1,855 bases of DNA from assembly GCF_003334335.1 (NCBI RefSeq), contig NZ_QOWQ01000097.1. One strand, written 5' to 3'. The position numbers and the translations under genes are program-made. Shown here piece after piece: positions 1,363 through 1,855 of the stretch. This DNA is from Escherichia coli. GTDB taxonomy: Bacteria > Pseudomonadota > Gammaproteobacteria > Enterobacterales > Enterobacteriaceae. Each line of letters begins with the position of its first letter. The first letter of the stretch is position 1. The notes under the pieces are model-generated. The model was not told the origin of the DNA. It worked only from the letters and a program-made list of their open reading frames with translations, and ran no database searches.

Positions 1363-1855
1363 TCAGAATTTATAGCCGACACCAACGATGAAACTGTTGG
1401 TACGCCAGTCACCACTGCCGGAGCCTTCATAAGCAATATCAATGGCCACGGATTCGGTCGGGTTAAACTGCACGCCAGCCCCCCACGCCAGAGACGTGTT
1501 GCTGTGGCGACCGTCATCACTTCCGGTCAGCACATCGTGCGTTTTCCCCTTGCTGTCAGTTACACGGAGATAATCCCCGGAAAAAGTCGACACACGACTG
1601 TAAGTCACACCCGCCATCGCATACGCGCTGAACCATTCATTCACGCGCACAGACGGCCCCGCCATCACGCTGAACCAGCGGTTACGCACGGAATCTTCAT
1701 GCCAGCGGGTATCGCTGTAATGCGTTTTTTGCTCATCTTTGGCATTGGCATAACTGAATGACGTCACCAGCCCCAGCATGTCCGTAAACTCATAACGGTA
1801 TTTCACGTTAATCCCGTTCAGATCATCGCTGCCTGGCATATCAGTATGGGTCTGA
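1363..1855 (-). CDS. lom: Lom/Ail/PagC/OmpX-family outer membrane beta-barrel protein (lambda Lom-like), C-terminal ~163 codons; N-terminus and signal peptide lie beyond the window end (5' partial)
   Basis: ORF track minus-strand ORF 1363..1839 (158 aa) ends ...WRTNSFIVGVGYKF with the terminal aromatic residue typical of outer-membrane beta-barrels. The sequence (GINVKYRYEF, WGAGVQFNP, alternating hydrophobic strands) matches my recollection of lambda Lom. The frame stays open upstream of the internal Met to the window edge (codons 1840..1854 = Q T H T D, no stop), and the 158-aa product lacks a signal peptide, so the true start is outside the window. Stop codon TGA at 1365..1363. Confidence 0.9.
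   Translation of the reverse strand, partial: QTHTDMPGSDDLNGINVKYRYEFTDMLGLVTSFSYANAKDEQKTHYSDTRWHEDSVRNRWFSVMAGPSVRVNEWFSAYAMAGVTYSRVSTFSGDYLRVTDSKGKTHDVLTGSDDGRHSNTSLAWGAGVQFNPTESVAIDIAYEGSGSGDWRTNSFIVGVGYKF

Follow-up and report, generated by a model that had tools for sequence, protein, structure and literature searches.

The window (the whole stretch of 1,855 nucleotides analysed here) carried, on its minus strand, the 3' part of a lom gene and the 5' part of a stf tail-fibre gene, with a terminator-like hairpin between them. The frame at 1854..1363 was the sole long open frame at the lom coordinates. It held 163 sense codons with no internal stop (1854..1366), ended in TGA (1365..1363) and ran past the end of the window. 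The initial annotation had given the coordinates and the count of 163 codons correctly and had left out the minus strand. The features of the region are as follows.

3..1298, minus strand: stf, first 432 codons (ATG at 1298..1296), matching tail-fibre PHROGs at E 6.6e-132
About 1290-1440 (12420-12960 in locus L001): conserved stretch covering the lom 3' end, the terminator and the stf start
1310..1336, minus strand: intrinsic-terminator-like element between lom and stf, with stem-loop AGCCCGCCGGTTCAGGCGGGCT at 1336..1315 and TTTTT at 1314..1310
1363..1854, minus strand: 3' part of lom, 492 nt, codons 37-199 plus TGA, about the last 82% of the gene
1777..1779, minus strand: lom codon 62, ATG (Met) in the window and ACG (Thr) in strain Ecol_AZ155, Thr62 to Met
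1855: third base of codon 36, stray in the window

The lom part of the window encoded beta-strands 1 (in part) to 8 of an Ail/Lom outer-membrane barrel and closed with ...FIVGVGYKF (read from 1389..1366), which contains the aromatic C-terminal motif GVGYKF. An aromatic C-terminus is typical of BAM substrates. A chance ORF was rejected because the window fragment alone matched NCBIfam models, Rck best (E 8.6e-32) and also OmpX (E 2.1e-24). Plus-strand ORFs around the same region found no support.

A megablast search of the window against complete E. coli genomes returned 17 records at an identity of at least 99%. The best complete genome, strain Ecol_AZ155, differed from the window by a single base (base 1778), and the affected codon 62 falls in a predicted periplasmic turn (T1) of the structural model. 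For an exact-protein lookup, we joined the N-terminus from Ecol_AZ155 to the window's own 163 residues, and the resulting 199-aa Lom was found encoded on three NCBI contigs. Draft contigs of GCA_012531195.1 and GCA_012738575.1 (L004:195-2049 and L005:195-2049) were 100% identical to the window over all 1855 bases and supplied the missing 5' end. About 130 nt had been expected upstream, holding a start and a signal peptide; the start and the signal peptide were confirmed, but the missing length was 108 nt (36 codons).

Upstream of the window, the identical contigs read GAGAGGTAATT-ATG and then MRKLCAVILSAVVWLVAAGMPASAAEHQSTLSAGYL, with a Shine-Dalgarno sequence, a basic N-terminus, a hydrophobic core and an A-S-A cleavage motif. 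The Sec signal peptide is MRKLCAVILSAVVWLVAAGMPASA, followed by AEHQ, and cleavage probably occurs after ASA, at residue 24. Lom residues 25-27 aligned with the mature ends of OmpX and Ail, and the model placed a low-confidence linker behind a helix at residues 2-18. The 5' part recovered from the window-identical contigs was free of stops, frameshifts and IS elements. With its start codon, ribosome-binding site and signal peptide in place, the gene is intact, as the initial annotation had judged from the visible part.

The two window-identical contigs are 2304 and 2085 bases long; both open 87 nt upstream of lom and break off within the stf repeats. The tail-fibre region of the prophage evidently breaks short-read assemblies. 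The contig from GCA_049547825.1 (L003 6108-6832) encoded the identical Lom protein and diverged from base 725 of the reverse-complemented window (about window position 1131). The divergence sets in near codon 56 of stf and marks a mosaic junction within the part that encodes the N-terminal domain.

The gene order in the near-identical genome (locus L001) was tape measure, homologues of lambda M, L, K and I (assigned from RefSeq product names), a 112-aa ORF, J, lom, a 991-aa stf and tfa. The proposed position of lom inside the tail gene block was thereby borne out, with J upstream in the near-identical genome and stf downstream in the window. The J of this genome was 83% identical to lambda J. 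Its prophage interrupts ompW, beside yciE and the trp operon, and ends in L001 at a 5'-truncated ompW next to yciE/yciF/trp. Beyond tfa, L001 16172-17879 carried a gene for a class I SAM-dependent methyltransferase that runs in the opposite direction and, past it, DinI, tfa and DUF4376 fragments. The 112-aa ORF between I and J (L001 7942-8280) matched PHROG 914 (function unassigned, E 7e-33) and has no counterpart in lambda. HK022 has two annotated 'moron' genes in the same slot, and by this analogy the ORF may be another accessory cassette.

On the evidence of frame, 5' end and neighbourhood, the window almost certainly holds the 3' 82% of an intact lom from a lambdoid E. coli prophage, encoding a 199-aa outer-membrane barrel precursor that is not part of the virion. 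This verdict agrees with the initial reading of a non-structural gene within the tail block.

The stf part of the window comprised a conserved N-terminal domain and then a long Ala/Ser/Thr-rich region with recurring ...KTSETNA... motifs, in which Tandem Repeats Finder found no array. Plus-strand ORFs at 52-801 (249 aa) and 56-706 (216 aa) lie antisense to stf and are by-products of composition; lambda has a similar arrangement, with the annotated orf206b antisense to orf-401. Rfam gave sub-threshold isrG matches on the plus strand at window positions 302-550 and 624-714 (E 7e-7; 34 bits, where the gathering score is 100). The RNA isrG is an Hfq-binding sRNA of Salmonella. We rejected both the isrG and the Trp leader matches as DNA homology or terminator resemblance, and the isrG-like matches antisense to the stf repeats probably reflect shared prophage tail-fibre DNA and not a conserved sRNA.

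The hairpin between lom and stf had 8 pairs, 7 of them G-C, and its T-run lies about 12 nt before the stf ATG. A second hairpin was found after J (z-score -2.5), with a T-run ending about 25 nt before the lom ATG. Both hairpins flanking lom are also present in lambda, and both are annotated as terminators in phage Ayreon. Like a moron, lom has its own terminator, in the hairpin and T-run that follow the gene. A scan of L001 11600-12800 around lom found no consensus sigma-70 promoter, although a weak promoter or one that departs from the consensus may be present. The GC content was 53.5% for lom, 56.6% for J and 54.7% for stf, and GC3 was 57.5%, 67% and 48%, respectively.

Full-length Lom matched Pfam PF06316 (Ail_Lom) over residues 1-199 of 199 (E 1.7e-127, 423 bits) and PHROG 108 'Lom outer membrane protein' (E 1.9e-105). 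Scores against the Rck and OmpX equivalogs (NF011777 and NF006917) were 120.4 bits against a whole-protein cut-off of 258 and 105.1 bits against 176, below the cut-off in both cases. Judged by these scores, Lom is a relative within the Ail/Lom family and not an Rck or OmpX orthologue. An AlphaFold2 model built from 87 distinct Lom sequences (mean pLDDT 85.9) showed the signal helix and eight strands at the following residues.

Strands of Lom (AlphaFold2): 28-40, 47-58, 63-81, 86-106, 111-135, 141-166, 172-181, 188-198

The best PDB folds by Foldseek were Ail (3qrc, E 3e-16) and OmpX (1qj9, E 8e-16). Mature Lom is predicted to be an eight-stranded outer-membrane barrel of the Ail/OmpX type, in which, according to the model, long strands beta3 to beta6 push two hairpins beyond the membrane. 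The end-to-end Pfam match and the proximity of the model to Ail and OmpX uphold the earlier assignment to eight-stranded barrels of the Ail/PagC/OmpX family. Ail of Yersinia, OmpX of E. coli and Rck and PagC of Salmonella share this barrel (Ail 3qrc and OmpX 1qj9 at about 30% identity). Their genes are chromosomal or plasmid-borne, whereas the window Lom is encoded in a prophage tail block, and its strands beta3 to beta6 are longer than theirs.

The window Lom (199 aa) was 43% identical to lambda Lom (NP_040601.1, 206 aa). The two share the Pfam family, the slot between J and stf, the 3' terminator and the 5' hairpin, and both have a signal peptide, eight strands and the C-terminal block GSGSGDWRT..FIVGVGYKF. 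At the DNA level, the last ~75 nt of lom, the terminator and the 5' end of stf were 85-92% identical between lambda and the window. In contrast, the predicted exposed parts were 29% identical to those of lambda Lom and held all the indels, against 61% identity in the rest, so LamB binding is not transferable to the window allele. The receptor-binding domain (RBD) of the linked J was only ~41% identical to the LamB-binding domain of lambda. From these sequence differences, the binding partner of the window Lom may differ from that of lambda Lom.

The lomR gene of the K-12 Rac prophage is of the same Lom type as the window gene (94-96% nucleotide identity) and also lies upstream of stfR. As the initial annotation had stated, it is disrupted by an insertion sequence: its first ~242 nt are missing and IS5Y interrupts it near nt 416, whereas the window gene is whole.

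Of 5426 complete E. coli genomes, 4690 carried the window type of lom; the median copy number was 2 and the highest 13. Across 83 distinct window-type alleles the pooled dN/dS was 0.16, which points to purifying selection maintaining this type. Variable positions within the type were residues 38-49, 73-79 and 150-151, all at hairpin tips, together with the signal peptide. The exposed tips showed no sign of positive selection, with a pooled dN/dS of 0.20 in exposed parts and 0.11 elsewhere.

Three Lom types occurred among IMG/VR loci, namely the 199-aa type of the window, a 207-aa type and the 206-aa type of lambda. Lom types otherwise share 40-60% identity, but their DNA was 85-98% identical across the final ~75 nt of lom, the terminator and the initial ~400 nt of stf. 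This conserved stretch looks like a recombination linker, across which the block of J RBD and lom and the stf modules are exchanged separately.

The J linked to the window-type lom was ~98% identical to lambda J up to about residue 830 and ~41% identical in the last 150 residues. The nearest solved RBD was that of 'A8 gpJ' (9wca), at 59% identity, and A8 recognises OmpC (bioRxiv 10.1101/2022.09.30.509847). From 158 IMG/VR loci, obtained in two scans, we took three segments for comparison: mature Lom, the C-terminal 150 residues of J and the N-terminal 120 residues of Stf. Extraction of lom from the loci was BLAST-based, and four false 'J RBD' clusters (an upstream transposase or other ORF, or a frameshifted J) were left out. 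Mantel tests were run on 126 unique triples of J RBD, Lom and Stf (145 loci). Divergence of Lom followed that of the J RBD, with a Mantel r of 0.69 (p<=0.0005) over the 126 triples and 0.47 within the window's type. For the Stf N-terminus, r was 0.09 over the same triples and 0.01 within the type. Both J and stf lie ~65 nt from lom.

The pairing is a loose one. Window-type Loms that are at least 92% identical adjoin four J RBD types, mutually 41-60% identical, which rules out a strict model of one Lom type per J RBD. Conversely, Loms that share only 48% identity accompany two RBD types that are 69% identical. Conserved DNA borders the block of J RBD and lom: mid-J on one side and, on the other, the final ~75 nt of lom together with the terminator and the 5' end of stf. 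The spacer between J and lom is poorly conserved. Given these borders and this spacer, linkage alone could explain the correlation between Lom and the J RBD. At four IMG/VR loci (L031, L078, L075 and L122) an intact lom followed either a frameshifted or truncated J or an ORF that was transposase-like or otherwise foreign. In decaying prophages, then, lom can survive the decay or loss of its tail-tip neighbour.

In the classical view, lysogens express lambda lom and its product promotes their adhesion to buccal cells (PMC7067206, PMC3594210, PMC3342100), and the link between prophage expression and adhesion drawn in the initial annotation stands as cited in these papers. More recently, overexpressed Lom was reported to give strong defence against lambda-vir and not against T7 (PMC12366544, 2025). 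The same study proposes superinfection exclusion or the prevention of non-productive adsorption late in infection, and reports that Lom at prophage level does not protect lambda lysogens from lambda-vir (PMC12366544). A PDB sequence search showed that entry 9wso contains 'Outer membrane protein lom' (two chains) and maltoporin, the latter with the same LamB sequence as in the J-LamB complex 8xcj. A search with lambda J showed J to be absent from 9wso, and our literature searches found no publication on the entry. With Lom and LamB both in 9wso, a Lom-LamB complex has already been solved. Lambda Lom appears to bind the phage receptor LamB and to block adsorption.

By analogy with lambda Lom, we tentatively assign to the window Lom a role in receptor masking or anti-readsorption, directed at the phage's own receptor, possibly a porin such as OmpC; we place this reading not far short of an even chance. 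The precursor is predicted to be exported by Sec, lose its signal peptide and be inserted by BAM into the outer membrane as a barrel. Its gene is an insulated cassette between J and stf with a terminator hairpin on each side, and late Q-antiterminated transcription would read through both hairpins; in lambda, lysogens also express lom at a low level. The exposed hairpins would bind an outer-membrane protein of the same cell, the one that serves as receptor for the phage's own J tip, and fewer sister phages would then adsorb to lysogens and to late-infected cells.

Neighbouring systems offer a parallel. In the FhuA-dependent phages HK022 and N15 the exclusion gene cor occupies the slot after J, and T1-like phages have a receptor-binding exclusion factor in the locus after gpJ. 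As analogues, these genes beside J are a positional precedent only. Cor (HK022, N15 and phi80) and Llp of T5 are receptor-blocking exclusion proteins encoded beside the receptor-binding gene. Their proposed target is the receptor of the phage that encodes them, a parallel to what lambda Lom may do with LamB. Cor and Llp are small proteins or lipoproteins that are unrelated to Lom, have no beta-barrel and act on FhuA. No defence family in PADLOC-DB 2.0 matched Lom at E <= 0.01.

Besides the loose pairing with the J RBD, the possible effect of linkage, the divergent exposed parts, the negative PADLOC-DB search and the failure to find a publication on 9wso, two further points count against masking. 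One is that lambda Lom at prophage level gives no protection against lambda-vir. The other concerns Phi24B, a short-tailed phage without a J-type tip. Phi24B, described in a 2026 cryo-EM preprint, carries an expressed lom, and published data show equal expression in lysogens and after induction.

The equal expression of Phi24B lom favours classical lysogenic conversion, in which the hairpins would act on the animal host, in epithelial adhesion and/or complement protection, to the benefit of the lysogen. We regard such a host-directed role as possible but less than probable. Membership and fold place Lom with Ail, Rck and PagC, and its best NCBIfam match is Rck, 'resistance to complement killing'; however, the Rck and OmpX scores fall far under the cut-offs, so Lom is no orthologue of a proven serum-resistance protein. 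The two flanking terminators agree with a moron layout, but no sigma-70 consensus promoter was found in the scan around lom, the start codon follows the upstream terminator after only ~25 nt, and the GC content of lom barely differs from that of its neighbours. The wide spread of the type, its median of 2 copies and purifying selection on it would suit a benefit to the lysogen, as would the few loci that keep an intact lom beside a frameshifted J or an IS. Against this, lom is not retained in every cryptic prophage, and the K-12 lomR is destroyed. The evidence for adhesion comes from a 43%-identical protein with different exposed parts. The label of lysogenic conversion or host fitness for the window lom, as given in the initial annotation, is an extrapolation by analogy with lambda Lom. 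We favour receptor masking slightly over the host-directed role, and the two roles are compatible.

A lytic-cycle envelope role, for example with the holin or spanin system in lysis and release, is very unlikely. It draws on the position of lom in the late operon, on a report that lom and a holin gene family are often transferred together, and on strong expression in the lytic phase (PMC9836094). The co-transfer is a statistical association only, and the model is a plain small barrel with no envelope-disrupting feature. Lambda lom, moreover, is dispensable for plaque formation. That the gene is a functionless decaying remnant, as many E. coli prophages are defective and the same-type lomR of K-12 Rac is truncated and IS5-split, is hardly credible, since the frame, start codon, signal peptide and C-terminal motif are intact in window-identical sequence, the tail operon of the near-identical genome is complete and dN/dS is low.

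Extended from the window allele to its type, receptor masking would make the 199-aa Lom a mask of the J receptor (OmpC or another porin) and not primarily a virulence factor, with J RBD and lom exchanged as a 'key and lock-cover' cassette. We consider this wider proposal rather doubtful.

The identification of an intact lom is secure, and the gene is an ordinary, very common and already annotated one. Its exact protein is in public assemblies, and most E. coli genomes list the type under the name 'Ail/Lom family outer membrane beta-barrel protein'. As annotation, the finding matters little; the point of interest is the biological role of Lom proteins. The virulence label of lambda Lom is decades old and its evidence is thin. 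If the 199-aa type masks another receptor, it would be relabelled from 'virulence factor' to 'phage-phage competition factor', a change that, if true, touches prophage annotation and the choice of therapy phages.
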